Positions 26,953 to 64,000 of a DNA stretch of 64,000 bases are shown one piece after another. The DNA is from an uncultured Actinomycetota bacterium. GTDB taxonomy: Bacteria > Actinomycetota > UBA4738 > HRBIN12. The translations under genes were made by a program, and so were the position numbers. The stretch is taken from assembly GCA_963724415.1 (NCBI GenBank), contig CAVRUS010000011.1:256561-320560 (forward strand), read 5' to 3'. Each line of letters starts with the position of its first letter. Positions within the stretch are counted from its first letter, which is position 1. The notes under the pieces were generated by a model. That model was not told the origin of the DNA, made no database searches, and saw nothing but the letters and a program-made list of their open reading frames with translations.

Positions 26953-26961
26953 CGCCGTCTC

Positions 26962-27732
26962 CTAGAGGGGTCCCGAGATCCCGCCGTCCTTGCGGATCCG
27001 CCAGAAGTGGACCGCCAGGAACAGCACCAATACGAACGGCAGCGCCAGCACGTGGAGGACGTACCAGCGGAGCAGCGTCTCCGGTCCGACGACGACGCCG
27101 CCGAGCAGCACGATGTTGAACTGCTTCGCGATGAACGGTGAGTACCCGGCGAGCGAGGTCCCGACGGTGACCGCCCAGATCGCGAGCTGGTCCCACGGCA
27201 GCAGGTACCCGGTGAACGACAGGCCGAGCGTGAGGAACAGCAGGACCACGCCGACGACCCAGTTGAACTCCCGCGGGGGCTTGTACGCGCCGGTGTAGAA
27301 GACCCGCGCCATGTGCAGCGTCACGCTGAAGACCATCAGGTGCGCACCCCAGCGATGGAGGTTGCGCACGAAGTCCCCGAGGAACACCGTCGTGCGGATC
27401 CCCTGCATGTCCGTGTACGCCTGCGCGCCGCCGATGTCGGCCATCGGCCGGTAGAAGAACATCAGGAAGATGCCGGTGATCGTGAGGAGGATGAACAGGA
27501 AGAAGGAGAGGCCCCCGAGGCAGAACGTGTAGGTCAGTTTCAGCCCGTGCCGTTTCACCTTCACCGGGTGGAGGTGGTACAGGACGTTGTTCATCGTCGC
27601 GAGGGCGCGATCGCGCGACGTGTCCTTGTAGCCCTTCCGGAAGATCGAGCCCGGCCGGAAGATCGACTTCCAGACCTCTGTCTCCCGGAGACGGTCGCCG
27701 AGCTCGCTCGGCGACGGGGGCTTCAACTTCAA
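26962..27732 (-). CDS. Cytochrome b6-like protein (N-terminal half of a split cytochrome b)
   Basis: TTG start after GAGAGGGGGAA; heme-ligand helices ([10 protein letters not shown]...FFYRP...HRWGAHLMV...). Confidence 0.8.
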
Positions 27733-27760
27733 CGCGTTCCCCCTCTCGCAGCCGGCGCGA

Positions 27761-28784: not shown

Positions 28785-29567
28785 ATGCTCGGGGCACTGG
28801 TAGAGACGGGACTCTCGTCGTGGTGGGCGCCGGCCCTCGCGTTCGCGGCCGGTGTCGTGTCCTTCGCGAGCCCTTGCGTCTGGCCCCTGGTCCCGGGCTA
28901 CGTCTCGTTCGTGACCGGGAGCCGGGCGGCCGAAGGAGAGGGGCGGCGCCCACTCGTGCCGATCCTGCTGTTCATCCTCGGGTTCACGATCGTCTTCACC
29001 CTGCTGGGGGCGTTCGCCGGCACGTTCGTCCCGCTGTTCCGGGGTCCCTGGTTCCAGCGGGTGGCCGGGCTCTTCGTGCTCCTGCTCGGCCTCTTGATGA
29101 TCGGCTACGCGTTCCGGATGGGGTCGCCCGGCCTGTACGCGGAGCGGCGGCCGCTGCTCGAGCGTGTGCGCATCGGCGGGGCCGGCGCGCTCCCGCTCGG
29201 GGTCGCGTTCGCCGCCGGCTGGACCCCCTGCATCGGGCCGGTGCTCGCGGGGATCCTCGCGATCGCCGCGACCGGAGGTTCGATCAAGGGTGCCGCCCTC
29301 CTCGCCGTGTACTCGCTGGGCCTCGGCGTCCCGTTCCTCCTCGTGGGCCTGGGCGCCGACCGGCTCGTGGCGAGCCTCGGATGGATCCGGCGACACTACC
29401 GGGGGATCGCCGCTGTCTCGGGGGCGTTCCTGGTCGCGGTCGGCGTCCTGCTGATGACGGGACTGTTCACGGCAGTTCTTCGGCCCGCTCGCGCGGTTCG
29501 CGCCCGGGTTGTAGCGCGGGTGCCATGGACGGGTGCGGAGGGGCTCCCTAGCATCGGGGCGCGATGA
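28785..29567 (+). CDS. ccdA: Cytochrome c-type biogenesis protein CcdA (DsbD-like thiol-disulfide transporter)
   Basis: SPCVWPLVPGY motif and multi-TM profile; ATG 28785 by index arithmetic (alternative GTG 28752). Confidence 0.8.
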   Translation: MLGALVETGLSSWWAPALAFAAGVVSFASPCVWPLVPGYVSFVTGSRAAEGEGRRPLVPILLFILGFTIVFTLLGAFAGTFVPLFRGPWFQRVAGLFVLLLGLLMIGYAFRMGSPGLYAERRPLLERVRIGGAGALPLGVAFAAGWTPCIGPVLAGILAIAATGGSIKGAALLAVYSLGLGVPFLLVGLGADRLVASLGWIRRHYRGIAAVSGAFLVAVGVLLMTGLFTAVLRPARAVRARVVARVPWTGAEGLPSIGAR

Positions 29568-31108: not shown

Positions 31109-32055
31109 GCGCTGAGCAGATCTCGAACACCGCGTTCGACGTCACCCTGTGGCTCTACCTGGGGGCGATGGTCCTGTCCTTCGCCTACCTCGCGGCCCGG
31201 CGCGAGGTGCTCTGGCGGCTCGCCAGGGTGGTCGCGATCGCCGGCGTGACGGCGAACCTCGTGTCGATCGTCGCGCGGGGCGTGGCGGCGCAGCGCGTGC
31301 CGTGGGGCAACATGTTCGAGTACTCGACGGTGCTCGCGTTCCTCGTGGTCCTCGGGACCCTCGTGTTCGTCGAGGGCATCGCGAAGATCAAGACCCTCAC
31401 CGGTTTCTCGCTGATGTTCGCGGTCTTCACCCTCGCGATCGCGGCGATCTTCTTCCCGGTGGAGCCGAGCCCGCTGCAGCCGGCGCTGAACTCGTACTGG
31501 ATCAAGATCCACGTCGTGGCCGCGATCACCGGGTCGTCGCTCTTCGCGATCGGCGGGATCGCGACGATCCTGTTCCTGATCAAGGACCGGTCGGAGCGGC
31601 GGGCGCTCGCGGGTCTCCGCGAGCGCCAGCCGGCGCCGATCATGGGCGGCGCGATCGAGGTCGATGCCCCCCACGACCTCCTCCCGGATCCCGAGGGATC
31701 CGGGAGTGCGACCCCCGAGGCCGGGCGCGGCGGCGTCCTGCCGTCCGCCGCCGCCCTGGACCGCGTGGCCTACCGGGTGATCGCGTTCGCGTTCCCGATC
31801 TGGACGTTCGCCGTGATCGCCGGCGCGATCTGGGCGCAGGACGCGTGGGGCCGCTACTGGGGATGGGACCCGAAGGAGACCTGGTCGTTCGTCACGTGGA
31901 CGATCTTCGCCGGCTATCTCCACGCTCGATCGACGGCGGGGTGGAAGGGTCGTCGCGCGGCGGTGATCGCCGTCGTGGGGTTCGTCTCGCTGCTGATCAC
32001 GTACTACGCGGTGAACCTATGGATCGTCGGACTGCATTCCTACAAGCTCGGATGA
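31105..32055 (+). CDS. resC: Cytochrome c biogenesis protein ResC/CcsA
   Basis: Tryptophan-rich WGRYWGWDPKETW motif; GTG start overlapping the resB stop. Confidence 0.85.
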   Translation: MSAEQISNTAFDVTLWLYLGAMVLSFAYLAARREVLWRLARVVAIAGVTANLVSIVARGVAAQRVPWGNMFEYSTVLAFLVVLGTLVFVEGIAKIKTLTGFSLMFAVFTLAIAAIFFPVEPSPLQPALNSYWIKIHVVAAITGSSLFAIGGIATILFLIKDRSERRALAGLRERQPAPIMGGAIEVDAPHDLLPDPEGSGSATPEAGRGGVLPSAAALDRVAYRVIAFAFPIWTFAVIAGAIWAQDAWGRYWGWDPKETWSFVTWTIFAGYLHARSTAGWKGRRAAVIAVVGFVSLLITYYAVNLWIVGLHSYKLG

Positions 32056-32144
32056 GACGTTCGGTCGCGCCGAACCCCGGTGATACAGTGCGCGCGGGCT
32101 CGCTGAGCCCGTCCTCAGGAGAGCTCCGGGAGACCGAAGGAACC

Positions 32145-33249
32145 GTGCGGAAGAGGGTGCTCTGGGCGACGGCCGCGATCGGCCTCCTCCTCCTGTTGAG
32201 CGCCTGCGCCCCCGACGCGACGCAGGACACGCTCCAGCCCAAGGGTCCCTATGCGCAGCTGCTGAAGGATCTGTTCGTCCCCGTCTTCTGGGTCGCCGTG
32301 GTCGTCTTCATCGTGGTCGAGGGCGGCATCGTGTGGATCACGATCCGCTTCCGCCATCGCAAGGGTCGCGAGCGCATGCCGGCGCAGATCCACGGGAACA
32401 CGCGCCTCGAGATCGCGTGGACGATCGCGCCCGCGCTGATCCTGGCCGTCGTGATGGTGCCGACGGTCGCGGTGATCTGGGATCTCGCGCGCAAGCCGCC
32501 CGAGGATGCCCTGAACGTCACCGTCGAAGGCTTCCAGTGGTGGTGGGGCTTCAAGTACACCGACGAGGACATGCGGACGGGCTACGGCGAGGGCGCGCCG
32601 ATCCGCACGGCCGACGTCCTGGTGATCCCCGAGGACCGTGTCGTCTACCTCTCGCTCGAAGCCGCGCGGGGGAGAGATCCAGGGGGACGATCCCGCCGCC
32701 TCGGACTACATGGTGATCCACTCCTTCTGGATCCCGGAGCTGGCGGGCAAGCAGGACGTGGTGCCCGGCAGGACGAACCACATCCTGATGCAAGCGGACG
32801 ACCCCGGCGTGTACACGGGCCAGTGCGCCGAGTTCTGCGGTCTCCAGCACGGTCGGATGCTCGTGCGGGTGGTCGCGCTCTCGGCCGAGGACTGGGACGC
32901 ATGGGTCGAGAACCAGAAGCGCACCGCGGTCATCCCGACCGATCCGCTCGCCCGGCAGGGGATGGACCTGTTCCTCGGACCGCTCTCGGGTGGTCGTGGG
33001 TCCTGCATCAACTGCCACGCCGTGGGCGGAACGGATGCCGTGAGCCAGGCCGGGCCCGAGCTGACCCACTTCGCCGACCCGACCCACGAGTGCTTCGCGG
33101 GGTGCAACTGGGAGGTGACGGATCGCGAGGCGCTGGAGGCCTGGCTCCGCGATCCGAACGCGGTGAAGCTGGGCGCGAAGATGCCGGACTACGACCTGAC
33201 CGAGCGGGAGATCGACGCCCTCGTGGCGTACCTCGAGAGCCTGACGTGA
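32145..33249 (+). CDS. ctaC: caa3-type cytochrome c oxidase subunit II with a C-terminal cytochrome c domain; +1 frameshift in a G5 run near 32668-32672
   Basis: GTG start gives a lipoprotein signal (MRKRVLWATAAIGLLLLLSAC). CuA site (HSFWIPEL, CAEFCGLQHGRM) and CINCH heme motif lie in the second frame (track ORF 32638..33249). Alternative ATG 32052 overlaps the resC stop. Confidence 0.75.
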
Positions 33250-35179: not shown

Positions 35180-35825
35180 ATGGCCGACGTCGCGATCACG
35201 CACGGCGAGCCCCACGGCGCCGATCACCCGGAGACCACCACCGGGCTGCCCCACACCAAGCTCGCGATGTGGATCTTCCTGGCCTCCGAGTGCATGTTGT
35301 TCGGCGCGCTGATCACCACGTACGTGCTGTACCGGGGAGCGGAGCAACGGCGCCTCCCCTTCCCGCCGAGATCTTCGACATCCCGTACACGTCGGTGTCC
35401 TCGTTCGTGCTGCTCACGAGCTCGCTCACGATGGTGCTGGCGCTGTCCGCCGCGCAGGACCGCGACACCGGCAGGATGCGTCTGTGGCTGCTCACCACGG
35501 CGTTGCTCGGTCTGACGTTCGTCGGAGGCCAGGTCTACGAGTTCACCGCCTTCTACGAAGAGGGACTCAAGCTCTCGACACGAACCTCTTCGGGACGACC
35601 TTCTACGTCCTGACCGGGTTCCACGGCGTCCACGTCACGGTCGGCATCCTGATGCTGCTCTCGCTCGTCGGCCTGTCCTCCGCGGAGCGCCTCCCGGAGG
35701 ACCCGTCCTTCCCGGTCGAGATGGTGGGGCTCTACTGGCACTTCGTCGACATCGTGTGGATCGTGATCTTCACCGTCGTGTACCTGATCCCGACGCCCAG
35801 CCCGGGAGGTCCCGGTGGCCCTTGA
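35180..35825 (+). CDS. ctaE: Cytochrome c oxidase subunit III (short form); two -1 frameshifts near 35355-35365 and 35565-35575
   Basis: Subunit III segments lie in three successive frames (track ORFs 35090.., 35269.., 35484..): WIFLASECMLFGALITTY / EIFDIPYTSVSSFVLLTSSLTM / NLFGTTFYVLTGFHGVHV. Confidence 0.7.
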
Positions 35826-38489: not shown

Positions 38490-39908
38490 TCAGGCGTGGA
38501 GCAGCGCGTCCGCGCCGACCGCTCCGAAGAGCCCCGCGAGGTAGAGGATCGAGAACGAGAAGAGGCGCCTCGTCCGTGCGTCGTCCGCGGTCCGCCACAC
38601 CTGCAGCGAGCGGTACACGAACGAGCCGCCGAGCAGCACCGCAGCGCCCGTGTACACGGGGCCCATGTGTCCGATCGGCACGAGCAGCAGCGTCGTCGCG
38701 AACAACACGAGCGAATAGAGGAGGATCTGCCGCCGTGTCTCGGCTTCGCCGCGGACCACGGGGAGCATCGGGACACCCGCCGCCGCGTAGTCGCCGGAGA
38801 AGCGCATCGCAAGGGCCCAGAAGTGCGGCGGCGTCCAGACGAACACGATCGCGAACAGCACGACGGCGGGCCACGCGAGCGTGCCGGTGACGGCGGCCCA
38901 TCCGACGAGTGCCGGCACCGCGCCGGCCGCGCCGCCGATCACGATGTTCTGCGAGGTCGTGCGCTTGAGCCACATCGTGTAGACGAAGACGTAGAACGCG
39001 ATCGCGGACAGGGCCAGCACGGCGGCCAGGACGTTGACGGTCACCGCGAGGAAGTAGAAGGCGATCGCGCCCAGAACGAAGCCGAACCGGAGGGCGTGTT
39101 CCGGCGCGATCGCGTGCGACGGCAGCGGCCGCTGGCGTGTCCGACGCATGATCGCGTCGATGTCCCGGTCGAGGTACATGTTGATCGAGTTGGCGGATCC
39201 GGCGGCGATCGCACCGCCCGTCAAGGTCGCGAGGATCAGCCACGGGGAGGGCAGCCCTCGCTCGGCGAGCAGCATCGCCGGGACGGTGGTGATCAGCAGC
39301 AGCAGGACGATCCGCGGCTTCGTGAGGCGGTAGTAGGCCGTGACGGTGTCGCGGAGCGACGGGCGGTCCTGGGCGATCTCGTCGACCTCTGCATCGGGGT
39401 CGGCACCTCCCTCTGTGCCGGGTGCCGTCCTCCCGAGCCTCGCCATCGTGGCGAGCGCGACCACCGTGGCCCAGATCAACACGGACAGCGCCACGTGTGC
39501 CACGACGGCCCAGGGCTGGAGCCGGGTCCACACGTTGGCCGCGCCCACGAGCACCTGCGCGACGAACAGGGCGAGGGCGGTCGTCGAGAGTCGCACCAGG
39601 ACCTCGCGCCGGCCGTCGCCGGTCCGGGCGCGGATCGCCGTCCAGAGGACGAGGAGCATCGCGGCGGCGGCGAGCGCGCGGTGCAGGAACATCGCCGTCG
39701 CGGCGCCGCCGAGCGTCGGCACGAGCCGCCCGTCCATCAACGGCCAGTCCGTGAACACCAGCTGGGCGTCGCTCGCGCGGACGTAGGTGCCGACGAGGAG
39801 CAGGGCTCCCACGACGGCCGCCACCAGGAGGGTGAGCCGCGCGAACGGGTCGCGGGCACCGCGGGGTTCATCCATGGCGCCCGCTTCCATGGCGCCCGCT
39901 TCGCGCAC
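38490..39908 (-). CDS. ctaB: Heme A synthase C-terminal half fused in frame to protoheme IX farnesyltransferase (CtaA-CtaB fusion, downstream part)
   Basis: N-terminal about 160 aa are CtaA helices 5-8 (FLHRALAAAAMLL...), then a UbiA-family CtaB (YYRLTKPRIV...NMYLDRDIDAIM). Confidence 0.75.
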   Translation of the reverse strand: MREAGAMEAGAMDEPRGARDPFARLTLLVAAVVGALLLVGTYVRASDAQLVFTDWPLMDGRLVPTLGGAATAMFLHRALAAAAMLLVLWTAIRARTGDGRREVLVRLSTTALALFVAQVLVGAANVWTRLQPWAVVAHVALSVLIWATVVALATMARLGRTAPGTEGGADPDAEVDEIAQDRPSLRDTVTAYYRLTKPRIVLLLLITTVPAMLLAERGLPSPWLILATLTGGAIAAGSANSINMYLDRDIDAIMRRTRQRPLPSHAIAPEHALRFGFVLGAIAFYFLAVTVNVLAAVLALSAIAFYVFVYTMWLKRTTSQNIVIGGAAGAVPALVGWAAVTGTLAWPAVVLFAIVFVWTPPHFWALAMRFSGDYAAAGVPMLPVVRGEAETRRQILLYSLVLFATTLLLVPIGHMGPVYTGAAVLLGGSFVYRSLQVWRTADDARTRRLFSFSILYLAGLFGAVGADALLHA

Positions 39909-40350
39909 CTGCGCCGGGTCTGACGGCGCTCGCCACGTAGGTCACGTCGGCGATCAGCAGGAGAGCCGTGACGAAGTGCGCCGTGACCCACCAGGGATCC
40001 AGCTCGGTGGCCACCACCACGGCCCCGATCCCCGCCTGGGCCATCACGAGCGGGAACGCCAGGACCGCCGGCCACCGGAGTCGTGGTTCCCCGGACGCCA
40101 CCCGGTACGCGACGACGCCGGTGAGCGCCGCCAGCACGGCGACCAGGAACGCCATCGTGCGGTGCGAGAACTCGATCAGGGAATGGATCGTCCCCGACGG
40201 GAACAGGTGCCCTGGCTCACAGGCCGGCCACGTCGAGCATCCGAGTCCGGACCCCGTCCCGCGGACGAGCCCGCCGATCGCGAACAGCACGATCGTGGCG
40301 ATCGCCGTGACGAGCGCCAGGGACCGGAATCGGGAGCGGGTGAAGAGCAT
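39868..40350 (-). CDS. ctaA: Heme A synthase N-terminal half (CtaA helices 1-4 with a Cys-pair loop), separated from the rest by a frameshift
   Basis: Start by index arithmetic (MLFTRSRFRSL...); GCSTWPAC loop cysteines and HSLIEFSHR; ends in a stop inside a 15-bp tandem duplication, while the continuation is in another frame. Confidence 0.65.
   Translation of the reverse strand: MLFTRSRFRSLALVTAIATIVLFAIGGLVRGTGSGLGCSTWPACEPGHLFPSGTIHSLIEFSHRTMAFLVAVLAALTGVVAYRVASGEPRLRWPAVLAFPLVMAQAGIGAVVVATELDPWWVTAHFVTALLLIADVTYVASAVRPGAGARSGRHGSGRHG
39872..39901. repeat. Perfect 15-bp tandem duplication (CCATGGCGCCCGCTT x2) at the ctaA frameshift junction
   Basis: Read directly from the sequence; encodes EAGAM-EAGAM in one frame and SGRHG-SGRHG in the other. 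Confidence 0.6.
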
Positions 40351-44048: not shown

Positions 44049-44549
44049 ATGCGGGCTGATGAGCTCGCGGCGCGCGTCGGCGAGCGATTCACCGACGTCC
44101 TGCTCGCACGTGACGAGGTCACCGTCGTCGTCGACCGAGACGACCTCGTCGATGCGCTCGTGCGACTCCGGGACCAACCCGACCTGTCGTTCGGGTTCCT
44201 CTCGAGCCTGACCGCGACCGATCACCTCGACCGGGAGCCCCGCTTCTGGGTGGTCTACGAGCTCCGGTCGGTGGAGCATGCTCACCGGATCCGCCTGAAG
44301 GTGGGGCTGCCCGCGGAGGATCCGCACATCCCCTCGGTCACGGCGCTCTTCCCGACGGCCGACTGGCACGAACGTGAGGCGTGGGACCTGTTCGGTGTCG
44401 TCTTCGACGGCCATCCCGACCTCGTTCGGATCCTGCTCCCCGACGATTGGGAGGGACATCCGCTCCGCAAGGACGAGGAGCTCGGGGGTGTCGAGACCCG
44501 GTACCACGGCGCGTTCATCCCACCCGTCGACGAACGGACGATGCCGTGA
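44049..44549 (+). CDS. nuoC: NADH-quinone oxidoreductase subunit C
   Basis: [19 protein letters not shown]...GHPLRKD motif. Confidence 0.9.
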
Positions 44550-47781: not shown

Positions 47782-50226
47782 GTGATGCCGAGCGGCGGCC
47801 CCCCGAAGGAAGACGTGACGTTGTCGATCGACGGCAAAGAGGTCACGGTCCCGACGGGCACACTGATCATCCGCGCCGCGGAGCAGCTCGGCATCGAGAT
47901 CCCGCGCTTCTGCGACCATCCGTTCCTCGAGCCCGCCGGGGCGTGCCGCCAGTGCTACGTCCGGATCGAGGGCCAGCCGAAGCTCGCCACCTCGTGCACC
48001 GTGCCGGTCGCCGCGGGCATGTCGGTGATGACGCAGGCGAGCGACGAGGAGGTCGCCGACGCCCAGCGCGCGAACCTCGAGTTCCTCTTGCTGAACCATC
48101 CTCTCGACTGCCCGATCTGCGATCGCGGCGGCGAGTGCCCGCTGCAGGACCAGGCCCTCGCGTACGGGCCGGGGGACAGCCGGTTCCGGGAGGCGAAGCG
48201 CGTCTTCAAGAAGCCGATCCCGCTGTCACCGCTCGTGGCGCTCGACCGGGAGCGTTGCATCCTCTGCGCGCGCTGCACGCGGTTCTGCGACCAGATCTCG
48301 GGCGACCGCTTCCTGGAGCTCTACGCGCGGGGAGCGGGGGAGCGGGTCTCGATCGCGGCCGGGGAAGACTTCCGGTCGCCGTTCAGCGGCAACACCGTGC
48401 AGATCTGCCCGGTCGGGGCGCTGACCTCTGCGCCGTACCGGTTCGCCGCCCGGCCGTTCGATCTGACGTACGGCGACTCGGTCTGCCCGCACTGCTCGGC
48501 CGGCTGCAACATCCGGGTCGACCTCCGGCGCGGCGAGGTCGTCCGCCACCTCGCGCGCGATGAGTACGAGGTGAACGACGCGTGGGTCTGCGACAAGGGC
48601 CGCTACGCGTTCCGGTTCCCCGACTCGCCCGAGCGGGTCACGACGCCGCTGATCAGGGACCACGGCCTCGAGCCGGCCTCGTTCGGCGAGGTGCTCACGA
48701 CCATCGCGAGCTGGGTGGACGGCGCGCGCGTCGGCGTGCTGACCGGCGGCCGGCTGATGGACGAGGACTACTACGCGCTGTCGAAGCTCGCTCGAACGGT
48801 CTTCAAGACGAACGACCTCGACCATCGGCGGGACCACGGAGCCGGCCTCCTCGAGGGTGAGGTCGCTGCCGGCGGGATGGGCGTGACGTATCGCGACGTG
48901 GAACGAGCGAAGGTGATCCTCGTCGCGGGCCTGGACGCCGAGCAAGAGGTTCCCATCCTGCACCTCCGACTCCGGAAGGCGGCGGCCGCCGGCGCGCGGA
49001 TCGTGGTGCTGCACCCCCGCCGGACCCGCCTCTGGGACGTCGCCGAGCACATCGTGTGCCGTCCCGGCGACGAGACATTGCTCCTGATGAAAGAGGAGGG
49101 CCGTCCCCGGCCGGAGATCGCCGAGGTCGCGAGCGCGCTCCGCGAGGCGGGTGACGCGGGGCTCGTGATCGCGGGACCGCGGCTCGCCGATCAGCCCCAA
49201 GGGGTCGAGGTGGCGGCCTCGCTGGCGGCGGACACCGGGGCGCGATTCGCCTACGTCACCCGTCGCGCGAACGATCGCGGCGCGCTCGTGGCCGGGATCC
49301 ACCCGTCGCTCCTGCCGGGCGGACGTTGGGTCGGGAGCGCGGAGGATCGAACGGAAGTGGAGGACGTCTGGGGGTCGCTCGAGTCGTCCGAGGGCAGGGC
49401 CTGGCGAGGGATCCTCGAGGCCTGTGCCGACCGAGAGATCGACGTGCTGTTCCTGATCGGCGTCGACCCCCTCCGGGACTACCCGGATGCGGCGCTCGCG
49501 CGGCGTGCCCTGCAGAACGTGCCCCGGAAGGTGGTGCAATCGCTCGAGCTCGGCTCGCTCGAGTCGTTCGCGGATGTGTTCCTGCCCGCAGCGGCCTTCC
49601 TGGAGAAGGACGGGCACATCACCACCTGGGAAGGCCGCGGCCAGCGTCTCCACGCGGTTCGAGATCCGCTCGGGATGTCCCGTCCCGACTGGGAGATCTT
49701 CGCCAGTCTGGCGCTCGCCTGCGGAGGAGACCTCGGGTTCGAGACCGTGGACGAGCTCCACGAGGAGATGGGCAGACTCCTGGCGCCGCGGGAGTCGCGG
49801 TCGCCGTTGAGGGCACAACCCCTCACGATGCCCGCCCGCGTCGGTGACGGCGAGCTCCTCCTGTTCACCTACCCCCTGCTCGTCGATGAGGGCCGCCTCT
49901 CCGAGCGCGCCGACGAGCTGAAGGCGGCGCTCGCCGATCCGCCGTTCGCGGAGATCCATCCCGCCGACGCGGGGCGAGCGAACGTCGCCGACGGGGCCGA
50001 CGTGCGGCTCGCCACGGCCGCCGGCGAAGTCACGCTGCCGGTTCGCGTCACCGAGCACGTCGCGGAGGGCGCGGTCTTCGTCCCCTTCAACCAGGCAGGC
50101 TTCGCGGCCAACACGCTCCTCCAGGGCCACTTCTCGATCGCCGCGACGATCCAGCCGGTGGACGCGCCGACCGACACGGACGCGGTCGCCGAGGTGGCCG
50201 AGGCCGCCGCGGGAGGTACCGGGTAG
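47782..50226 (+). CDS. nuoG: NADH-quinone oxidoreductase subunit G
   Basis: 814 aa; N-terminal [2Fe-2S]/[4Fe-4S] cysteine motifs (CRQCYV; [13 protein letters not shown]; [11 protein letters not shown]). Confidence 0.9.
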
Positions 50227-51847: not shown

Positions 51848-52404
<557 letters not shown>

Positions 52405-52408
<4 letters not shown>

Positions 52409-52710
52409 GGACGCCGATCGCGTATTTCATCGTCCTGTCGGGGATCCTCTTCGCGCTCGGGACGCTCGGCGTGCTGCTCCGCAAGAACGCGCTGCTGATC
52501 TTCATGTCCATCGAGCTCCAGCTGAACGCGGTGAACCTGGCGCTGGTTGCGTTCTCGCGGATGCACCTCGCGCTCGACGGCCAGGTGCTGGCGTTCTTCT
52601 CGATGGTGGTGGCGGCCGCCGAGGTCGTGGTCGGTCTCGCGATCATCGTGGCGGTGTACCGGCGCCGGGGGACCGTCGACGTCGACGACGCGAGAGGGCT
52701 CGCAGGATGA
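52405..52710 (+). CDS. nuoK: NADH-quinone oxidoreductase subunit K
   Basis: 101 aa NuoK/ND4L ([17 protein letters not shown]...). Confidence 0.9.
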
Positions 52711-54639
52711 TCGCGCTGTCGCTCCTGCGGGCTCGCTCGATCGAGCTGGATCATCTGGCTGATCCCCGCGCTCCCGCTCGTCGCGGCAGCGGTCAACCTC
52801 TTCCTCGGGCGACGCCTCGGGCGATGGCGCCGGCTGGCTGGCGGCTTCGGCCGCGGTCGGCCTCTCGTTCCTTCGCCGTGTCGGCGCTGATCGTCGTCCG
52901 TTGCTCCTAGCGGAGCGCGGAGGACTCGCGCTCGTGCATCCAGCACCTGTTCGACTGGATCTCGGTCGGGAGCTTCAACGTCGGCGTCGATCTCCGGCTC
53001 GACGTGCTCTCCGCGACGATGATCCTCGTCGTCACCGGCATCGGTTTCCTGATCCACGTGTACGCGATCGGCTACATGGAGGGCGACCCGCGGTACGGGC
53101 GGTTCTTCGCGTACCTCAACCTGTTCGTGTTCTTCATGCTCCTGCTGGTCCTGGCGGACAACTACCTCCTCCTGTACGTGGGGTGGGAGGGCGTCGGCCT
53201 CTGCTCGTACCTCCTGATCGGCTTCTGGTTCGAGAAGACCGAGAACGCGATCGCGGCGAAGAAGGCGTTCGTCACGACCCGGATCGGCGACACGATGATG
53301 CTGGTCGGGCTCGCGCTGATCGTGAAGGAGTTCGGCTCGCTCGACTTCGGCGCCGTCCTCGGCGCGCCCGGGGAGACGATCGGCGAGGGGACGGCGACCG
53401 CGATCTCGTTGCTCCTGTTCGCCGGCGCGATCGGGAAGTCCGCGCAGGTCCCTCTGCACGTCTGGCTGCCGGACGCGATGGCCGGCCCCACGCCCGTCTC
53501 GGCGCTGATCCACGCCGCCACGATGGTGACCGCCGGCGTCTACCTCGTCGTGCAGGAGCGCGCCGCTCTTCGAGCTCTCAGGCATCGCCCTCACCGTCGT
53601 ACTCGATCGTGGGGCTCCTCACGATGCTCTTCGCCGCGCACCTGCGCGCTGGCGCAGGACGACATCAAGCGGGTCCTCGCGTACTCCACCATCAGCCAGC
53701 TCGGTTTCATGTTCATGGCCGCGGGCATGCGCTTCTACACCGGCGCGATCTTCATGCTCGTCGCCCACGCGTTCTACAAGGCGCTGATGTTCCTGGGCGC
53801 GGGCTCCGTGATGCACGGGACGCACGAGGAGACGGACCTCCAACGGATGGGCGGGCTGATCCGCAGGATGCCGGTCACGGGCTGGACGTTCCTCCTGGGG
53901 GCGTTCGCGCTGGCCGGGGTCTGGCCGCTCGCCGGGTTCTTCGCGAAGGATCAGATCCTCGAGGTCGCGAACCGCACCGGCCGGACGTGGGTCTACCTGC
54001 TGGGGACGCTGGGCGCACTCCTGTCCGCCCTGTACATCGGGCGTCTCTTGTTCCTGGCGTTCTTCGGACGGCCGAGGAGCGAGCAGGCCGAACATGCGCA
54101 CGAGTCGCCCGTCGTGATGACCGATCCCGCTCGTGGTCCTCGCCGCGGGCGACGATCATCGCCGGGCTCCTGCTGTCGACGAACGCCGAGGGGAGGCTCG
54201 CGACGTCGCTCGAGCCGGTGGTCGGGCCGCTGCCGGCGCACGAAGGCGGGCTTGTCGACGGCCGCCCTCCTGGTGATCGCGACCGCGATCGCGCTCGGCG
54301 CGCTCGCGGTCGCGTGGTGGGTGTACGCGTCCGGTCGGGTCGACTGGCTCGCGCTCCGGGAGCGGCTCCAGCCGCTGCCGCGCGCCGCGCGCAACGGCTG
54401 GTACGTCGATCAGCGCGTACTCCACGCTGTTCGTACAGCCCGGGCTCGCCGCGGCCCGGTTCTCGGCGAACGTCTTCGACACGAAGGTCGTCGACGGGCT
54501 CGTGAACGGGGTCGGCGCCGGGACGCGGCGGTTCGCCGCCGTTGCCCGCCGCATCCAGACAGGGTTCGTGCGCTCCTACGCGCTCGCGTTCCTCCTCGGC
54601 GCCGTCGGCGTCCTCGTCTGGCTGGGGACGCGGCTGTGA
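52707..54639 (+). pseudogene. nuoL: NADH-quinone oxidoreductase subunit L, disrupted by at least 10 frameshifts (pseudogene or assembly-error hotspot)
   Basis: NuoL-homologous peptide segments jump among all three frames: N-terminus 52707-53000 with about 5 shifts; 53555-53650 with 3 (APLFELSGIALTVVL / IVGLLTMLFAAHL / ALAQDDIKRVLAYS); 54130-54420 with 3 ending in the true C-terminus ...GAVGVLVWLGTRL* at 54639. Flanking nuoK and nuoM are intact. Confidence 0.7.
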
Positions 54640-56183
54640 ACAAGCTGCTCACCCTCACGACGTTCCTCCCGTTGCTCGGCGCCCTGATGGTGCTGGGCGG
54701 CGGCCGTGGGCTGAAGGACGGCGCCGCCCGCTGGGTCGCCCTCGGGGTGTCCGTGGCGACGTTCATCGTTTCGCTCGTCGTGCTCGGGCGCTTCGACCCG
54801 AGCTCCTCGGAGACGTTCCAGATGGTCGAGATCGCGCGGTGGGTCCCGTCGATCGGCCTGTCCTACGCCGTCGGCATCGACGGCCTCAGCATCTGGATGC
54901 TCCTGCTCACGACGTTCCTGTTCCCCGTCTCGATCCTGGCGTCCTGGACGATCACGAAGGACGTCCGGCGGTACCTCGCGGCGATCCTCGTGCTCGAGAC
55001 GGCGGTGATCGGCACGTTCGTCGCCCTCGACCTCCTGCTCTTCTTCCTGTTCTTCGAGGCCCTCCTCGTGCCGATGTACCTGTTGATCGGCGGGTGGGGC
55101 GGACAGCGGCGCATCTACGCCGCGATCAAGTTCTTCCTCTTCACGATGGCGGGCTCGGCGTTCCTGCTCGTCGCGATCCTGTTCCTCTACGTGCAGCAGG
55201 ACGGCCCCCGCCTGTTCGGCTACGGGGCGATGATGGACGCGGCCGCAGGCGTCCCGGTCACCACGGCCCGGTGGCTGTTCCTCGCGTTCTTCGTCGCGTT
55301 CGCGGTGAAGGTCCCGCTCGTGCCGCTGCACACGTGGCTGCCGGACGCGCACACGGAGGCGCCCACGGCGGGCTCGGTGCTGCTGGCGGCGCTCCTGTTG
55401 AAGGTGGGGACGTACGGGCTGATCCGGTTCAACCTGATGCTCTTCCCGGAGGCGTCGAAGTACTTCGCCACGTTCGTCGGCGTGATCGCCGTGATCGGCA
55501 TCGTCTACGGCGCCGTCAACGCCTTGATCCAGACCGACATCAAACGGTTGGTGGCGTATTCCTCCGTCTCGCACCTCGGCTTCGTGGTGCTGGGCGTGTT
55601 CGCGTTCACGCAGCAAGGGGTCACCGGCGGAGTGCTCCAGATGGTGAACCACGGCCTCGCGACGGGTGCGCTGTTCCTGCTGGTCGGGATGGTCTACGAG
55701 CGGACGCACACCCGGGACCTGGGGAGCATGGGCGGGCTCGCCTCGGTGATGCCGTGGCTGATGGGCGCGTTCCTGTTCACCGTGTTCGCCTCGGCCGGCC
55801 TCCCGGGGCTGAACGGCTTCGTCGGGGAGTTCCTCGTGATCGTCGGAACGTTCGCCGTGCACTCATGGTTCGGCGCGCTGGCCGCGACCGCGGTCGTCCT
55901 CGCCGCGATCTACCTCTTGTGGTCGTACCAGCGGATGGCGTTCGGCCCGGTCCGTGAGGAGCACCGCTCGCTGCCGGACGTGAGCCTTCGTGAGGTCGTG
56001 GTGCTGGCGCCGGTGCTGGCGCTCCTCCTCGTGTTCGGCGTGGCGCCGAAGCTGCTCACGGACCGGATCGATCCGGCCACCGAGGCCGTGATCGCCCGCG
56101 TCGCGCCGAACCATCAAACCGATGTCGGAGTGGCCGACCGGGCGATCGTGAACCCCTCGGCCGACGAGGAGGCCGCGCCGTGA
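54636..56183 (+). CDS. nuoM: NADH-quinone oxidoreductase subunit M
   Basis: In-frame GTG overlapping the nuoL stop (VNKLLTLTTFLPLLGA...); NuoM/ND4 motifs. Confidence 0.9.
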   Translation: MNKLLTLTTFLPLLGALMVLGGGRGLKDGAARWVALGVSVATFIVSLVVLGRFDPSSSETFQMVEIARWVPSIGLSYAVGIDGLSIWMLLLTTFLFPVSILASWTITKDVRRYLAAILVLETAVIGTFVALDLLLFFLFFEALLVPMYLLIGGWGGQRRIYAAIKFFLFTMAGSAFLLVAILFLYVQQDGPRLFGYGAMMDAAAGVPVTTARWLFLAFFVAFAVKVPLVPLHTWLPDAHTEAPTAGSVLLAALLLKVGTYGLIRFNLMLFPEASKYFATFVGVIAVIGIVYGAVNALIQTDIKRLVAYSSVSHLGFVVLGVFAFTQQGVTGGVLQMVNHGLATGALFLLVGMVYERTHTRDLGSMGGLASVMPWLMGAFLFTVFASAGLPGLNGFVGEFLVIVGTFAVHSWFGALAATAVVLAAIYLLWSYQRMAFGPVREEHRSLPDVSLREVVVLAPVLALLLVFGVAPKLLTDRIDPATEAVIARVAPNHQTDVGVADRAIVNPSADEEAAP

Positions 56184-57692
56184 TCGGACAGCAGGTGCTC
56201 CCGACCCCCGAGCTCGTCTTCGAGCCACTCCTGCCCGAGCTGGCTCTGGTGGTGTTCGCGATCCTCGGCCTCCTCTACGAGGCGTTCGCGAAGCGGTCCG
56301 AGCCCCTCGTCCACCTGTCGATCGGGCTCGTCGGGATCGCGCTCGCGGCGGCCACCAGCCTGTGGCTGTGGAGCTGGGAAGGGCCGGCCGGCGCGGTTCC
56401 GAACCAGCCCGTCACCGTGCTGGGCGGCGCGATCGTGTTCGACCGCTTCGCGGTCCTGTCCCGGCTCCTCCTGCTCGTCGTCGCCGCGCTCGGGCTGCTT
56501 CTGGGCCACCAGTACTTCGCGCGCTCCGAAGACGAGCAGCGCGGCGAGTTCGTCCCGCTGGTCCTGTTCGCGACGTCGGGGATGACGTTGATCGTGGCCT
56601 CCGCGGACCTGATCGTGATGTTCCTGGCGCTCGAGATCCTCTCCCTCGCCCTCTATGTCCTCACCGGGCTCACGGGCCGCCGGGCCGCGAACGAGGCATC
56701 GATGAAGTACTTCCTCCTCGGTGCGTTCAGCTCGGCGTTCTTCCTCTACGGCGTGGCCATGGCCTACGGGGCGACGGGCACGACGAAGATCGATGCGATG
56801 GCGATCGCCCTGACCGGCCGTGGCGGCACACAGGCGCTCGCGGTGCTCGGTCTCGCGCTCCTGGCGGTGGGCTTCGCCTTCAAGATCTCGGCGGCGCCGT
56901 TCCACATGTGGACGCCCGACGTCTACCAGGGCGCCCCGAGTCCGGTGACCGCCTTCATGTCGGCCGCGACGAAGATCGCCGCGTTCGCCGCGCTGATCCG
57001 GGTCCTCAACGTCGCGTTCCAAGCGCTCGCGTGGGACTGGGCACCGGTGGTGTGGGGGTTGGCGGCGGCTTCGGTGGTGGTCGGCAGCATCCTGGCGATC
57101 GCGCAGACGAACGTGAAACGGATGCTCGCGTACTCGAGCATCGCGCACGCCGGATTCATCCTGACCGGGCTGACGGCTCCAGGGTCCGAGGGCATCCGGG
57201 CCGCGATGTTCTACCTGGTGGCGTACGCCGCGATGACGATCGGGGCGTTCGGCACCGTGATGATCGTGTCGGGCCGGGGGGAGGAGCGGACCCGTATCTC
57301 TGACTACACCGGCTTGGCGAGGACGAACCCGATCGCGGCGGCGCTGATGACGCTCTTCCTGCTCTCGCTGGCCGGGATCCCGCCGACCGCGGGCTTCATC
57401 GCGAAGGTGACCGTGTTCACGGCGGCGATCGACGCCGGCTACTGGATCCTCGCCCTCGTGGGGGTGCTCGCCAGCGTCGCGGCCGCCTTCTTCTATCTTC
57501 GGGTGATCGTGCTGATGTACATGCAGGAGCCCGAGGTGGCGCCGGCGCCCGGAATCGCGGTCGCGCCTGGACCCGACGAGCGCCTCGATCGGCGCCATCC
57601 TGGCGATCCCTGCCGCCGCGACCCTGCTCCTCGGTGTGTTCCCCGGCTTGATCGTGGGCATCATCCAGGACGCCTCGGTGCTGCGATGGTGA
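56180..57692 (+). CDS. nuoN: NADH-quinone oxidoreductase subunit N with a C-terminal frameshift near 57560-57575
   Basis: Main frame runs to 57703 with a non-homologous tail; the conserved C-terminus (...SIGAILAIPAAATLLLGVFPGLIVGIIQDASVLRW*) is in another frame ending at 57692. Confidence 0.8.
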
Positions 57693-58764: not shown

Positions 58765-59130
58765 GTGCCTGACTACTACTCGTCCTACGGTGTCGTGCTG
58801 GCGGTCGTGGCCGCGGGAGCGATCCTCGTCGCGGTGGCGTTCACCGCCGCGCGTCTGATCGCCCCTCACCGACCGCTCCCCGCCAAGCTCACCACCTACG
58901 AGTGCGGGATCGACCCCGTCGGTGAGGGCTGGTCGCAGAGTCAGATCCGCTACTACGTCTTCGGGTTCCTGTTCGTGATCTTCGACGTCGAGGCCGTGTT
59001 CCTCTTCCCCTGGGCACGTGTCTTCGAGAGCCTCGGCTGGGCAGCGGTGGTCGAGATGGGCATCTTCATCGGGATCCTCGCGACCGGCCTCCTCTACGCG
59101 TGGCGCAAGGGGGTCGTGCGGTGGGCCTGA
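58765..59130 (+). CDS. nuoA: NADH-quinone oxidoreductase subunit A, second copy
   Basis: [40 protein letters not shown]. Confidence 0.85.
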
Positions 59131-59627
59131 TCACCGAGAAGACCCCGCTCCCGAAGATCCAGCCCGTGAAGTTCCTGCTGAACTGGGGCCGGCGGTACTC
59201 CTTGTGGGTGATGAACTTCGGCCTCGCGTGCTGCGCGATCGAGCTGATCGCCACCTCCACCTCCAAGCACGACTTCATCCGCCTCGGCGTGATCCCGTTC
59301 GCGCACGGCCCCCGCCAGGCGGACCTCCTCGTCGTGGCCGGGACCCTGACCGACAAGATGGCGCCGGCGCTCAAACGCGTCTACGACCAGATCCCGGACC
59401 CGAAGTACGTGATCTCGTTCGGCTCCTGCTCGAACTGCGGCGGTCCCTACTGGGACTCGTACTCGGTGACCAAGGGCGTCGACCAGATCGTGCCGGTCGA
59501 CGTCTACGTGCCCGGTTGCCCGCCGCGCCCCGAAGCTCTGCTGCACGGGATCGTGAAGCTGCAGGAGAAGATCAAGGACGAGGACATCCAGGAGAAGTGG
59601 GCGAGTGGCCACAGCGCTGTCTCCTGA
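59100..59627 (+). CDS. nuoB: NADH-quinone oxidoreductase subunit B, second copy
   Basis: GLACCAIEL...[10 protein letters not shown]...PGCPPRPE; the start may be GTG 59121 rather than 59100. Confidence 0.85.
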
Positions 59628-60126
59628 GGACGTGGAGTCGCGTCTGCGGGCGCGGTTCGGCCAGGACATCCTCGCGTTCGAGGTGCAGCACGGGCACGCC
59701 GTGGCGACCGTCGGTGCCGACCGGTACCGCGACGTCTGCCGGTTCCTCCGCGACGAGCCCGAGTTCGCCTGCGACTACTGCGACTTCACCGGCGGCGTCG
59801 ACTTCGGTCCGGAACGCGGCTTCGAGGTCGTCACCCACCTGTACTCGACCGCGCACCATCACAACGTCCGCATCAAGGTGCAGGTCCCGCACGACGACCC
59901 GGTCTGCCCGACGGTCTCCGACCTGTTCCCCACCTCGGACTGGCACGAGCGGGAGACGATGGAGATGTTCGGGATCCGCTTCGAGGGCCACCCGAAGCCC
60001 GTGAAGCTCCTGCTCTCCGAGCCGTTCGAGGGCCAGCCCCTGCGGAAGGACTTCCCGCTGATGACCCGCGAGGTCAAGCCCTGGCCCGGGCTCGTGGAGG
60101 GCGAAGACGTGGAGGACGACGAGTGA
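59605..60126 (+). CDS. nuoC: NADH-quinone oxidoreductase subunit C, second copy (no nuoD follows)
   Basis: [19 protein letters not shown]...GQPLRKD; the gene immediately downstream is nuoH. Confidence 0.85.
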
Positions 60127-61130
60127 TCCTGGCCGAGACCGGCGTCTCGGTCTTCTCCTCGCTCTTCGAGAACTTCTGGGTCGTCCTGTTGCTGAAGACG
60201 GTCGCCGTGATGGGGTTCTTCCTGGTCGTCCCGCTCGGCGTCGGCTACGTGGAGCACAAGGGCCTCGCCCACATGCAGGCGCGGCTCGGACCGATGGAGG
60301 CCGGGGCGTTCCACGGGTGGGCCCAGCTCGTCGCCGACGGCGTGAAGTTCATCCAGAAGGAAGACGTGATCCCCGCGGCCGCGGACCGCAACGTGTTCTC
60401 CCTCGCGCCGGCGGTGGCGATGATCCCGTACATCGCGATCCTCGTCGTGCTGCCGATCAGCGACTCGTGGTTCGCGGAGGACCTCGACGTGGGGATCTTC
60501 TTCGTGCTGGCGATGTCCAGCATCTCGGTGATCGGCATCATGATGGCCGGCTGGTCCTCCGCGAACAAGTTCTCCCTGATCGGTGCGCTCCGCGCGGCCG
60601 CGCAGCTGATCGCGTACGAGCTGCCGCTGGTGATCGCCGCGGCCGCCATCGTGATGCAGGCCGGCACACTGTCGATGATCGGGATCGTCGAGGCGCAGCA
60701 GGACCTCTGGTTCATCATCCCGCAGTTCCCGGGCTTCCTGATCTTCATGATCGCCGCGTTCGCCGAGCTGCAGCGGCCGCCGTTCGACATGCCGATCGCC
60801 GACTCCGAGATCATCTTCGGCGCCTACACCGAGTACACGGGCCTGAAGTTCGCGTTCTTCCTGCTCGCCGAGTACGGCGGGATCGTGGCGTTCTCCGGGA
60901 TCGCAGCGGTCCTGTACCTCGGCGGCTACCAACCGCTCCCCGGCATCCCGATCCCCGGGCCGCTGATGATGATGGGCAAGATCGGGGCGCTCGCCTTCTT
61001 CTTCATCTGGCTGCGGGCGACGTATCCGCGGCTCCGCGAGGACCAGCTCCAGCGCTTCTCGTGGCTCGCGTTGATCCCCCTGTCCCTGGCGCTGATCATG
61101 GGCGTGGCGGTGGCGAAGGTGGCGTTCTAG
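60123..61130 (+). CDS. nuoH: NADH-quinone oxidoreductase subunit H, second copy
   Basis: AELQRPPFDMPIADSEIIFGAYTEYTG. Confidence 0.9.
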   Translation: MILAETGVSVFSSLFENFWVVLLLKTVAVMGFFLVVPLGVGYVEHKGLAHMQARLGPMEAGAFHGWAQLVADGVKFIQKEDVIPAAADRNVFSLAPAVAMIPYIAILVVLPISDSWFAEDLDVGIFFVLAMSSISVIGIMMAGWSSANKFSLIGALRAAAQLIAYELPLVIAAAAIVMQAGTLSMIGIVEAQQDLWFIIPQFPGFLIFMIAAFAELQRPPFDMPIADSEIIFGAYTEYTGLKFAFFLLAEYGGIVAFSGIAAVLYLGGYQPLPGIPIPGPLMMMGKIGALAFFFIWLRATYPRLREDQLQRFSWLALIPLSLALIMGVAVAKVAF

Positions 61131-61634
61131 ATGCCGGAGCAGACGCGCAAGCGCGGGACCGGGCTCGGGCTCGCCAAGGGCCTGTCGGTCACACTCAAGA
61201 CGATGCTGCAGCCGGCGGTCACGCAGCAGTACCCGCGCGTGAAGCCGGATCTCCCACCCCGGACCCGGGGTGTGATCGCGCTGAAGGAGGCCAACTGCAC
61301 CGTCTGCTACAAGTGCTCCCGCGAGTGCCCCGATTGGTGCATCTACATCGACGCGCACAAGGAGACGCACGATCCTGCGGGCGGCGGTCGCGCGCGGTCC
61401 GCCAAGGTGCTCGATCGCTTCGCGATCGACTACGCCCTGTGCATGTACTGCGGGATCTGCGTCGAGGTGTGTCCGTTCGACGCCCTGTTCTGGAGTCCGG
61501 AGTTCGAGTACGGCGAGTACGACCTCGACCTGATGACCCATGAGAAGGAGCGCCTCGAGGACTGGACGTACACCGTCCTGCCCCCGCCGGCCCTGGAAGA
61601 AGGCGCCGAGCCCACGGAGGAACAGGCGTCGTGA
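61131..61634 (+). CDS. nuoI: NADH-quinone oxidoreductase subunit I, second copy
   Basis: [12 protein letters not shown] and [12 protein letters not shown]. Confidence 0.9.
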
Positions 61635-62131
61635 CGGCGCAGGAGTACGCGTTCGCGGTGATCGCGGCGGTGGGATCGATCAGCGCGATCGCGGTCGTGA
61701 CCGCCCGCAACGTCGTGCACGCCGCCCTCTACCTCGTCGTCGCGCTCCTCTCGGTCGGCGCGACGTTCCTCCTCCTCGGCGCGGAGTTCGCCGGCTGGGT
61801 CCAGATCCTGATCTACGTCGGCGCGATCGTGATCCTGTTCCTCTTCGGCCTGATGCTCACGAAGGCGCCGATCGGCCGCGACACGCTCGACAACGCACAT
61901 CGGTGGGTCGGGCTGCTGGTGGCCGCCGGCATCTTCGCCGGGTTGGTGTTCCTGATCCAGGAGGCCTTCCCGCTCGACGAGGAGCCGTTCGAGGTCTTCC
62001 GCTCCACGACAGACGCGGTGGGGCAGTCGATGTTCCGCGACTTCATCCTGCCGTTCGAGGCGATCTCGTTCCTGCTGCTCGCGGCGCTGATCGGGGCGAT
62101 CGTGCTCGCGCGCAAGGACGAGGGGAACTGA
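61631..62131 (+). CDS. nuoJ: NADH-quinone oxidoreductase subunit J, second copy
   Basis: NuoJ TM pattern; 4-nt overlap with nuoI2. Confidence 0.85.
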
Positions 62132-62132
62132 C

Positions 62133-62435
62133 GTGATCCGTCTGCCCTTCGTCCTGCTGTTCGCGGCCCTGCTCTTCTCGGCAGGCGTGTACGGAGTGCT
62201 CGCTCGCCGGAACGCGGTGATGGTCCTGATGGCGATCGAGCTGATGCTGAACGCCGTGAACGTGAACCTGGTGGCGTTCTCGTCGTCGCTGCACGACGTG
62301 GGCGGGCAGATCTTCGCGCTCTTCGTGATCGCGGTCGCCGCGGCCGAGGTCGGGATCGGCCTCGCGATCGTGATCCTGCTGTTCCGGAACCGGGCCTCGA
62401 TCAACGTGGACGAGGTGAACCTCCTCAAGTGGTAG
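62133..62435 (+). CDS. nuoK: NADH-quinone oxidoreductase subunit K, second copy
   Basis: AIELMLNAVNVNLVAFS. Confidence 0.9.
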   Translation: MIRLPFVLLFAALLFSAGVYGVLARRNAVMVLMAIELMLNAVNVNLVAFSSSLHDVGGQIFALFVIAVAAAEVGIGLAIVILLFRNRASINVDEVNLLKW

Positions 62436-64000
62436 CAGCCGAGACGACCGCCGCCACCGGCGCGATCCAGTACGCGTGGGTGGTCGCCCTCCTCCCGGTC
62501 GTCGCGGCCGTCTTCACGCTCGTGTTCGGCAAGCGCATCCCGGGGAAGGGGGCCGCGTTCGGGATCCTCGCCCTCGCCGCTGCGCTCGCCCTCGCGCTCG
62601 CGGTCCTGTGGCACTTCGTGACCGGCGGAGGCCCGTACGAGTCCTCGATCGATTGGTTCCAGATCGGGCCGCTGCACGTCGAGGTGGGCCAGTACGTCGA
62701 CGGCCTCACCGCCGCGATGCTGATCGTCGTGACCTCGGTGTCGCTCGCGGTCCATGTCTACTCCCTCGGCTACATGCACGGCGATGTGCGGTTCACGTGG
62801 TTCTACGTCGTCCTGTCCCTGTTCACCTCCGCGATGCTCGTCGTCGTGATCGCCAACAACCTGGTCATGCTGCTGGTGGGCTGGGAGGTGATGGGCGTCT
62901 GCTCCTACCTCCTGATCGGTCACTGGTTCGAAGAGCACGAGAACTCGAGCGCCGCGATCAAGGCGTTCATCACGACGCGGATCGGCGACGTCCCGTTCAT
63001 GTTCGGGATCTTCGCGTTGATCTTCGCCACGGGGTTCACGACGGCGAACATCCAGGAGATCGGCGAGGTGATCGGCGGACCCGAGGTCTCTGCCGCGTTC
63101 GTGACCGTGGCGGCGCTGCTCTTGTTCGGCGGGGCGATCGGGAAGTCGGCGCAGTTCCCGCTGCACGTCTGGTTGCCGGACGCCATGGCCGGTCCAACCC
63201 CCGTCTCGGCGTTGATCCACGCCGCGACGATGGTCGCGGCCGGCGTCTACCTGGTGGGTCGGATGTTCGAGGTGTTCGTCCACGCGGATCCGTGGGTCCT
63301 GACGTTCGTGGCCACGATCGCGGCGATCACCACTTTGGGGGCGGCGTTCCTCGCGTTCGTGCAGGACGACATCAAACGCGTGCTCGCCTACTCCACCCTG
63401 TCCCAGCTCGCCTACATGGTGGCCGGGCTCTCGATGGGGCCCGAAGGGGTGACCGCCGGCTTCTTCCACCTGTTCACCCACGCTTTCTTCAAGGCACTGT
63501 TGTTCTTGGGTGCAGGCTCGGTGATCCACGCCGTGCACTCGAACAACATGAGCGAGATGGGCGGGCTGCGGAAACAGATGCCCGTCACGTTCTGGACGTT
63601 CCTGATCGGCTCCCTCGCGCTGGCAGGCTTCTTCCCCCTCGCGGGATTCTGGTCCAAGGATGAGTTGCTCGCAGGCGCGTGGGCGAACAGTCAGGGCTTG
63701 TTCTGGATCCTGCTGCTGACCGCCGTGCTGACGGCGTTCTATATGACCCGATGCGTGCTTCTGACGTTCTTCGGCAGCTACCGCGGCGCTCAGCATCCGC
63801 ACGAGTCGCCGCCCGTGATGACCGGGCCGCTCGTCGCCCTCGCCGGAGCCACGATCGTCGTGGGCTTCTTGGGGGCGCCCCAGCTGGGCGGCGTGTTCGG
63901 CGACTGGGTGTACTTCGAGCATCCGCACGAAGCCGAGTTCCTCTATTGGGTCGCGATCGTGGGGACGATCGCCGCGCTGATCGGTTTCGGGATCGGTTAC
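62429..64000 (+). CDS. nuoL: NADH-quinone oxidoreductase subunit L, second copy, intact, 3'-truncated by the window edge
   Basis: GTG overlapping the nuoK2 stop; read continuously in one frame to the window end (WLPDAMAGPTPVSALIHAATMVAAGVYLV...). Confidence 0.8.
   Translation, partial: MVAAETTAATGAIQYAWVVALLPVVAAVFTLVFGKRIPGKGAAFGILALAAALALALAVLWHFVTGGGPYESSIDWFQIGPLHVEVGQYVDGLTAAMLIVVTSVSLAVHVYSLGYMHGDVRFTWFYVVLSLFTSAMLVVVIANNLVMLLVGWEVMGVCSYLLIGHWFEEHENSSAAIKAFITTRIGDVPFMFGIFALIFATGFTTANIQEIGEVIGGPEVSAAFVTVAALLLFGGAIGKSAQFPLHVWLPDAMAGPTPVSALIHAATMVAAGVYLVGRMFEVFVHADPWVLTFVATIAAITTLGAAFLAFVQDDIKRVLAYSTLSQLAYMVAGLSMGPEGVTAGFFHLFTHAFFKALLFLGAGSVIHAVHSNNMSEMGGLRKQMPVTFWTFLIGSLALAGFFPLAGFWSKDELLAGAWANSQGLFWILLLTAVLTAFYMTRCVLLTFFGSYRGAQHPHESPPVMTGPLVALAGATIVVGFLGAPQLGGVFGDWVYFEHPHEAEFLYWVAIVGTIAALIGFGIGY

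Follow-up and report, generated by a model that had tools for sequence, protein, structure and literature searches.

The gene for subunit L of NADH-quinone oxidoreductase, nuoL (52707..54639), carries 12 frame-changing lesions in the 64-kb window, by which we mean the whole stretch of DNA that was analysed here (coordinates refer to the forward strand unless stated otherwise). Judging from sequence comparisons with related genomes, these disruptions very probably represent a hotspot of consensus errors in a long-read metagenome contig, and nuoL itself would, with the same high confidence, be best explained as a normal, functional complex I gene of the organism.

Twelve frame changes within one gene

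The gene is located between nuoK and nuoM in the nuoA-N operon, a synteny that is common to the closest reference genome (L001) and to the related contigs L081-L087. The ATG of nuoL overlaps the stop codon of nuoK (ATGA), and its stop codon overlaps the GTG start of nuoM (GTGA). The deposited sequence contains no single uninterrupted nuoL frame: the frame that is initiated at the ATG ends at 52908. Altogether, eleven 1-base insertions and one 1-base deletion account for the 12 frame changes. Starting in frame 0 at the ATG, the reading path runs 0>1>2>0 within the initial 200 nt, makes a short excursion at 52899-52908, passes twice more through 0>1>2>0, and finally shifts to frame 1. This path was established from the agreement of the three-frame translation, of tblastn and DNA alignments to L001, which encodes an intact NuoL of 633 aa and served as the alignment reference for nuoL, and of a homology-free trace of the GC3 phase evaluated with a hidden Markov model (HMM). 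The window is about 70% G+C, and G+C at third codon positions reaches 97-100%, which allows the frame to be followed without recourse to homology. The three-phase GC3 HMM proved a sensitive homology-free detector of frameshifts, with a resolution of about 30 nt; it detected every lesion that was later confirmed against the relatives.

The lesions fall into three clusters and a terminal site. The first cluster (52749..52908), delineated from the GC3 phase and from alignment to L082 and to the orthologues P0008 and P0009, comprises +1 shifts at 52749, 52825 and 52871, a -1 shift at about 52899 and a +1 shift at 52908, all five positions being approximate because the N-terminal 80 codons of nuoL are hypervariable in all relatives; the insertion at 52908 creates an in-frame TAG. 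The second cluster (53552..53639) consists of three 1-base insertions, at 53552-4, 53604-5 and 53639, which together shift the frame by +3, so that it is regained after 29 garbled codons; these insertions were seen in none of the six or seven relatives aligned. Three further 1-base insertions, at 54121, 54151-2 and 54252, make up the third cluster (54121..54252). The last lesion, an uncompensated insertion of a C at 54414, puts the final 75 codons into frame 1, up to the natural stop at the overlap with nuoM.

An earlier note on this DNA had described nuoL as shredded by at least 10 frameshifts in clusters, and both the count and the clustering are borne out by translation, alignment and the GC3 trace. 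Twelve of the about 18 lesions in the 64-kb window lie within 1.93 kb (binomial P about 9e-15), so that their clustering in nuoL is far above chance expectation. The note was also right that uniform error would not concentrate in this way; the error is non-uniform and coincides with a block of divergent sequence that is described below. The statement that nuoA-K, nuoM and nuoG are free of frameshifts holds as well: in comparison with five conspecific contigs, no private frameshift indels were found in nuoA-G, nuoH-K or nuoM of the window. In particular, nuoK (52405..52710) is intact, and so is nuoM (54636..56183), the 515-aa product of which scores 607.6 bits against TIGR01972 (profile positions 1-485 of 486). 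The GC3 phase makes excursions in nuoC (44052-44178) and nuoG (49630-49666), and no window-specific indels are found at either place.

In principle, programmed recoding, whether by transcriptional slippage or by frameshifting on the ribosome, could read across such shifts. Apart from the frame changes themselves, nothing speaks for this mechanism. It would have to operate at twelve shifts in one gene, at sites that have no slippery runs and that none of the orthologues and conspecifics shares; by this lack of conservation, programmed recoding in nuoL is effectively refuted, and we assign it a negligible probability.

The repaired gene shows no trace of decay

Reversion of the 12 single bases yields an open nuoL frame of 1923 nt that encodes 640 aa without a stop. 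The repaired NuoL scores 721.5 bits against NF005141, the NCBIfam NuoL equivalog with a cutoff of 556, matching the profile from position 4 to position 609 of 615 in one stretch, and 699.8 bits against TIGR01974; more than 100 intact orthologues, 633-637 aa in length, share 84-88% identity with it. After correction, the peptides encoded out of frame show identities with the orthologues of up to 97% in cluster 2 and up to 91% in cluster 3. In an alignment of 91 sequences, the repaired protein retains all 247 of the 247 columns that are invariant in the 90 orthologues, and at the columns where these orthologues agree it shows no private substitutions. The dN/dS ratio of nuoL, as calculated for codons 81-640 against the relatives, is about 0.15, with 0.03-0.2 in the neighbouring genes. 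No excess of substitution errors was seen alongside the nuoL indels, which for its part counts against an artefact.

These data bear directly on the possibility that this copy of the gene, hereinafter nuoL1 where it has to be told apart from a second copy, nuoL2, is a genuine pseudogene, with real frameshifts that arose after recombinant import or under relaxed selection with nuoL2 compensating. The lesions are indeed real in the sequence and extremely concentrated, and an open nuoL2 is present 8 kb downstream as part of a second, partial nuo cluster. Natural bacterial pseudogenes show a deletion bias in their indels, as reportedly documented by Mira, Ochman & Moran (2001), and a gene drifting long enough to accumulate twelve indels would be expected to carry many substitutions at conserved sites along with indels leaning towards deletion. 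In nuoL, dN/dS is not raised and the invariant residues are unchanged, so that twelve indels stand alone, unlike in neutral decay; 11 of the 12 lesions are insertions, opposite to the deletion bias of natural pseudogenes; the four conspecific contigs that cover the gene do not share the lesions; and the gene still overlaps nuoK at its start and nuoM at its stop. All things considered, a genuine pseudogene appears improbable.

Nor does the second cluster change this assessment. It occupies 58765-64000, downstream of a polyprenyl synthase gene, and comprises nuoA2, B2, C2, H2, I2, J2, K2 and L2, with no D, E, F or G homologues in the window; this arrangement is also present in L082 and in L085-L087. 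The nuoL2 gene (62429..64000) is open to the end of the window over all 523 codons present, in accordance with its earlier description as intact. There is nothing to suggest the further idea that it substitutes for nuoL1: NuoL2 belongs to a separate cluster and is only 48% identical to NuoL1 at the protein level (67% at the DNA level). On account of the same low identity, cross-mapping of reads or gene conversion from nuoL2 was rejected as a source of the lesions.

The lesions are almost all private to one assembly

The relatives' contigs were retrieved by exact-protein and homology look-ups, the exact match to NuoI giving three conspecific contigs; the NuoK, NuoM and CtaD proteins of the window had no exact match on record. 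Five contigs (L081, L084, L085, L086 and L087) are conspecific with the window, being about 98% identical to it in the regions flanking the lesions; L083 represents a sister lineage, and the relationship of L082 is more remote. Four of the conspecific contigs cover nuoL, and in one of these, L087, the gene is intact and encodes 637 aa. In the other three (L081, L085 and L086) nuoL is broken, which lends some support to a pseudogene and, taken alone, could hint at biology and count against an artefact. However, nuoG and nuoN are broken equally often in these same three contigs. Of the seven well-aligned insertions of the window, none except that at 54121 was found in any relative by multi-way alignment; L085 has an insertion at this one site as well, but its haplotype there is clearly another. 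Hence, bar this one site, the nuoL lesions of the window are private to one assembly.

An intact nuoL allele of the window type, the lack of which weighs against an artefact, was not found in the databases: a protein query with the C-terminal 218 aa gave a best match of 87%, along with a short fragment matched at 94%, which led to L083. Among the JGI metagenome contigs, neither a pattern spanning an insertion site with the additional base optional nor a species-specific 32-mer gave any matches.

Lesions of the same type are found in many essential genes of the related assemblies, which again argues against a pseudogene. Splits or fusions affect the nuoD, nuoG, nuoH, nuoM and nuoN genes of the relatives in at least one contig each, at sites that differ from those of the window. 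Frame-changing events (those with a length other than a multiple of three) in nuoA-G across the assemblies comprise 27 insertions versus 6 deletions, and insertions exceed deletions similarly in other alignments. L083 carries 28 single-base insertions and 3 deletions in 8.6 kb, or about 4 lesions per kb. Private indels in the window, combined with lesions of the same class elsewhere in other assemblies, are what a consensus error of long-read sequencing produces. The nuoL lesions are private, insertion-biased and, where they recur, recurrent at the same site across lineages, which points to a technical origin and not to inheritance.

The origin of the contigs is compatible with this assignment. 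The contigs of the relatives carry Flye-style names (contig_N) and neighbouring ENA analysis accessions of the ERZ2503xxxx series, and L001, the closest genome in GTDB, is a MAG from the Microflora Danica catalogue. For this catalogue, Nanopore data alone were assembled with Flye, followed by a single Medaka round (PMC12313526). The window and the ERZ contigs probably come from the same project, the ERZ series being presumably that of Microflora Danica. The window, too, would most likely derive from Nanopore reads only.

The errors are, nevertheless, of an atypical class. Association with homopolymers, the classic Nanopore signature, is absent: in the nuoH-pps region, only 19 of 60 single-base insertions extend a run, versus 50% expected by chance. 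The location of most lesions outside homopolymers, unlike textbook Nanopore error, has to be counted as evidence against an artefact. Several insertion sites are identical across lineages, for example 53295 (L085, L086 and L083), 54747 (L081 and L083) and 54121 (the window and L085); no motif common to these recurrent sites was identified. The recurrence at the same sites points to a systematic, context-dependent consensus error and not to descent.

Two more specific sources of the insertions were considered. A link to GATC methylation was rejected, as 12 of the 60 insertion contexts contain GATC versus 13.8 expected, and 5 of the 12 sites in the window do (P = 0.12). The other idea is that of merged SNPs, whereby the polisher would emit both alleles of a variable position in tandem. 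At three of the seven well-aligned sites (53604, 53639 and 54414), the tandem bases are the two alleles present among the relatives, with about 1 of 7 expected by chance as a rough estimate only, and the idea would also fit the avoidance by the insertions of extending runs, which is suggestive; it is statistically insecure, and we do not claim it.

The lesions coincide with a block of divergent ancestry

Divergence profiles reveal a sharp-edged block of 2.1 kb, from about 52320 to 54420, that covers the end of nuoJ, the whole of nuoK and most of nuoL. Within it, the window differs from its conspecifics by 9-11%, as compared to about 2% in both flanks. Every nuoL lesion is contained in this block, with the insertion at 54414 at its 3' edge. 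The dS in the block is 0.26-0.47 and the dN/dS is about 0.15; because the extra divergence is mostly synonymous, the block is taken to be a real, selected allele of different ancestry. The window differs from the sister lineage L083 by only 6-8% in this block, that is, by less than from any of the conspecifics. Among the other conspecifics, the nuoK-nuoL alleles are 2-7% apart, which marks this region as an apparent hotspot of allelic diversity in the species; on the basis of these sequence comparisons, repeated homologous recombination with related lineages may be suggested to underlie this diversity. A similar divergent patch is present in nuoM of L085.

The separate ancestry of the block would also accord with a pseudogene, and it opens two further possibilities. 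First, the block could be a real import and the frameshifts in it genuine at least in part, NuoL1 having been lost too recently for substitutions to accumulate. In that case, the strain would have to make do with the second nuo cluster or with a complex I devoid of the distal antiporter arm; we regard such a recent loss as very improbable. Second, the contig could be chimeric, the 2.1-kb block having been spliced in from a rarer related population, with the errors reflecting the very low coverage of the latter. This would fit the distance of 9-11% from all conspecifics as against only 6-8% from the sister lineage, and, with about 6 lesions per kb, the block has a density of the same order as L083, the poorest of the related contigs. 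Yet, given the variability of nuoK-nuoL among conspecifics, a natural recombinant allele is equally plausible, and the edges of the block lie inside genes with continuity of the reading frame. A chimera, to which we likewise give very little credence, would in any case be a sub-variant of the artefact explanation and not a true alternative to it.

The preferred explanation, a local failure of the consensus, can be envisaged as follows. The spurious single-base insertions would have been introduced at the assembly or polishing of the long-read contig. The nuoK-nuoL stretch would be a strain-variable recombinant block, for which the contig carries an allele about 10% different from that of the rest of the species. 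Reads in the block would then be few, if this is a minority allele, or would represent a mixture of haplotypes, and the polisher would fail locally, while the flanks, being common to all strains, would be well supported. The errors would thus concentrate in nuoL because this 2.1-kb stretch is strain-variable and recombinant. Of the two readings that the earlier note had left side by side, an assembly-error hotspot is accordingly favoured over a decaying pseudogene, the latter being at odds with the lack of decay by substitution, the private insertions and the intact copy in L087.

Other frameshifts in the window

The claim that all neighbours of nuoL are intact stands for nuoA-K and nuoM and has to be qualified for nuoN, ctaC, ctaE and a ccdA-like gene, which carry frameshifts caused by insertions. 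In nuoN (56180..57692), the frame shifts within the variable C-terminal linker, at about 57540-57580: the true C-terminus, ...GVFPGLIVGIIQDASVLRW*, is encoded in another frame, and NuoN models are matched only to positions 436 of 472 and 480 of 524. In the last 150 nt of nuoN (57540-57692), L081 and L082 each have a different lesion of their own; in all the assemblies examined, the linker is thus either variable or prone to error.

The ctaC gene (32019-33249), coding for a cytochrome c oxidase subunit II whose C-terminal domain is a cytochrome c, contains a 1-base insertion at 32662, and its counterpart in L084 is intact (398 aa). The gene for subunit III, ctaE (35180-35825), is spread over three frames, with shifts of +1 at 35339, +1 at 35346 and +2 at 35571; the joined product of 213 aa covers positions 14-189 of the 190 in the actinobacterial CtaE model, and ctaE of L084 is intact with the same 213 aa. 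In the ccdA/DsbD_TM-like gene (28877-29567), a 1-base insertion relative to L084 at 29469 shifts the final ~15 codons; L084 has three extra bases slightly upstream. Thus, the few frameshifts of the window outside nuoL are also insertions as compared to an intact conspecific.

Two further regions were noted on the reverse strand. A split cytochrome b (26100-27760) is encoded by two genes, a b6-like N-terminal one and a subunit-IV-like one, which are separated by an Ala/Pro-rich linker; here the GC3 phase wanders over 26696-26960, and the window differs from L084 by two 1-base indels (26621 and 26699) and one 3-base indel (26764). A ctaA/ctaB-like gene of the window exceeds its counterpart in L084 by 23 + 10 bases at 39867-39911. 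Because this gene is split in L084 (440 + 87 aa) and forms a continuous ORF in the window, the copy in L084 is probably the faulty one.

Implications and comparison with known systems

If the genome were annotated as is, it would be scored as lacking functional NuoL, CtaC, CtaE and NuoN, and the aerobic respiratory chain of the organism would wrongly be deemed defective. More generally, errors in long-read MAGs can be intensely local, in this case seemingly tracking a strain-variable recombinant block, and a contig that is clean over tens of kilobases may still hold a gene shredded by artefact. The biological by-product of the analysis, the allelic diversity of nuoK-nuoL within the species, is modest.

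As to known systems, some actinobacterial genomes carry a full nuoA-N operon along with a second partial cluster, for instance nuoA2-N2 of Streptomyces, and the window shares this layout. The paralogue in the window is, however, only 48% identical to NuoL1, and nothing indicates that it has replaced the latter. Genuine pseudogenes of the respiratory chain are known from reductive genomes, as in Mycobacterium leprae, which has lost its nuo operon. Such pseudogenes resemble nuoL of the window in that a complex I gene is disrupted by multiple changes of frame; real decay, in contrast, is accompanied by deletions, by changes at conserved positions and by lesions that members of a lineage have in common, none of which are seen in nuoL.

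Another parallel is provided by the frameshift (indel) errors that reportedly occur in long-read-only assemblies and MAGs (Watson & Warr 2019; Sereika et al. 2022). As in nuoL, single-base indels there split conserved genes, are private to an assembly and vary in density between conspecific contigs. The nuoL lesions depart from the classic long-read pattern in being insertions outside homopolymers instead of homopolymer deletions, and from the known long-read errors in their roughly 25-fold concentration in one 2-kb block that matches a divergent allele.
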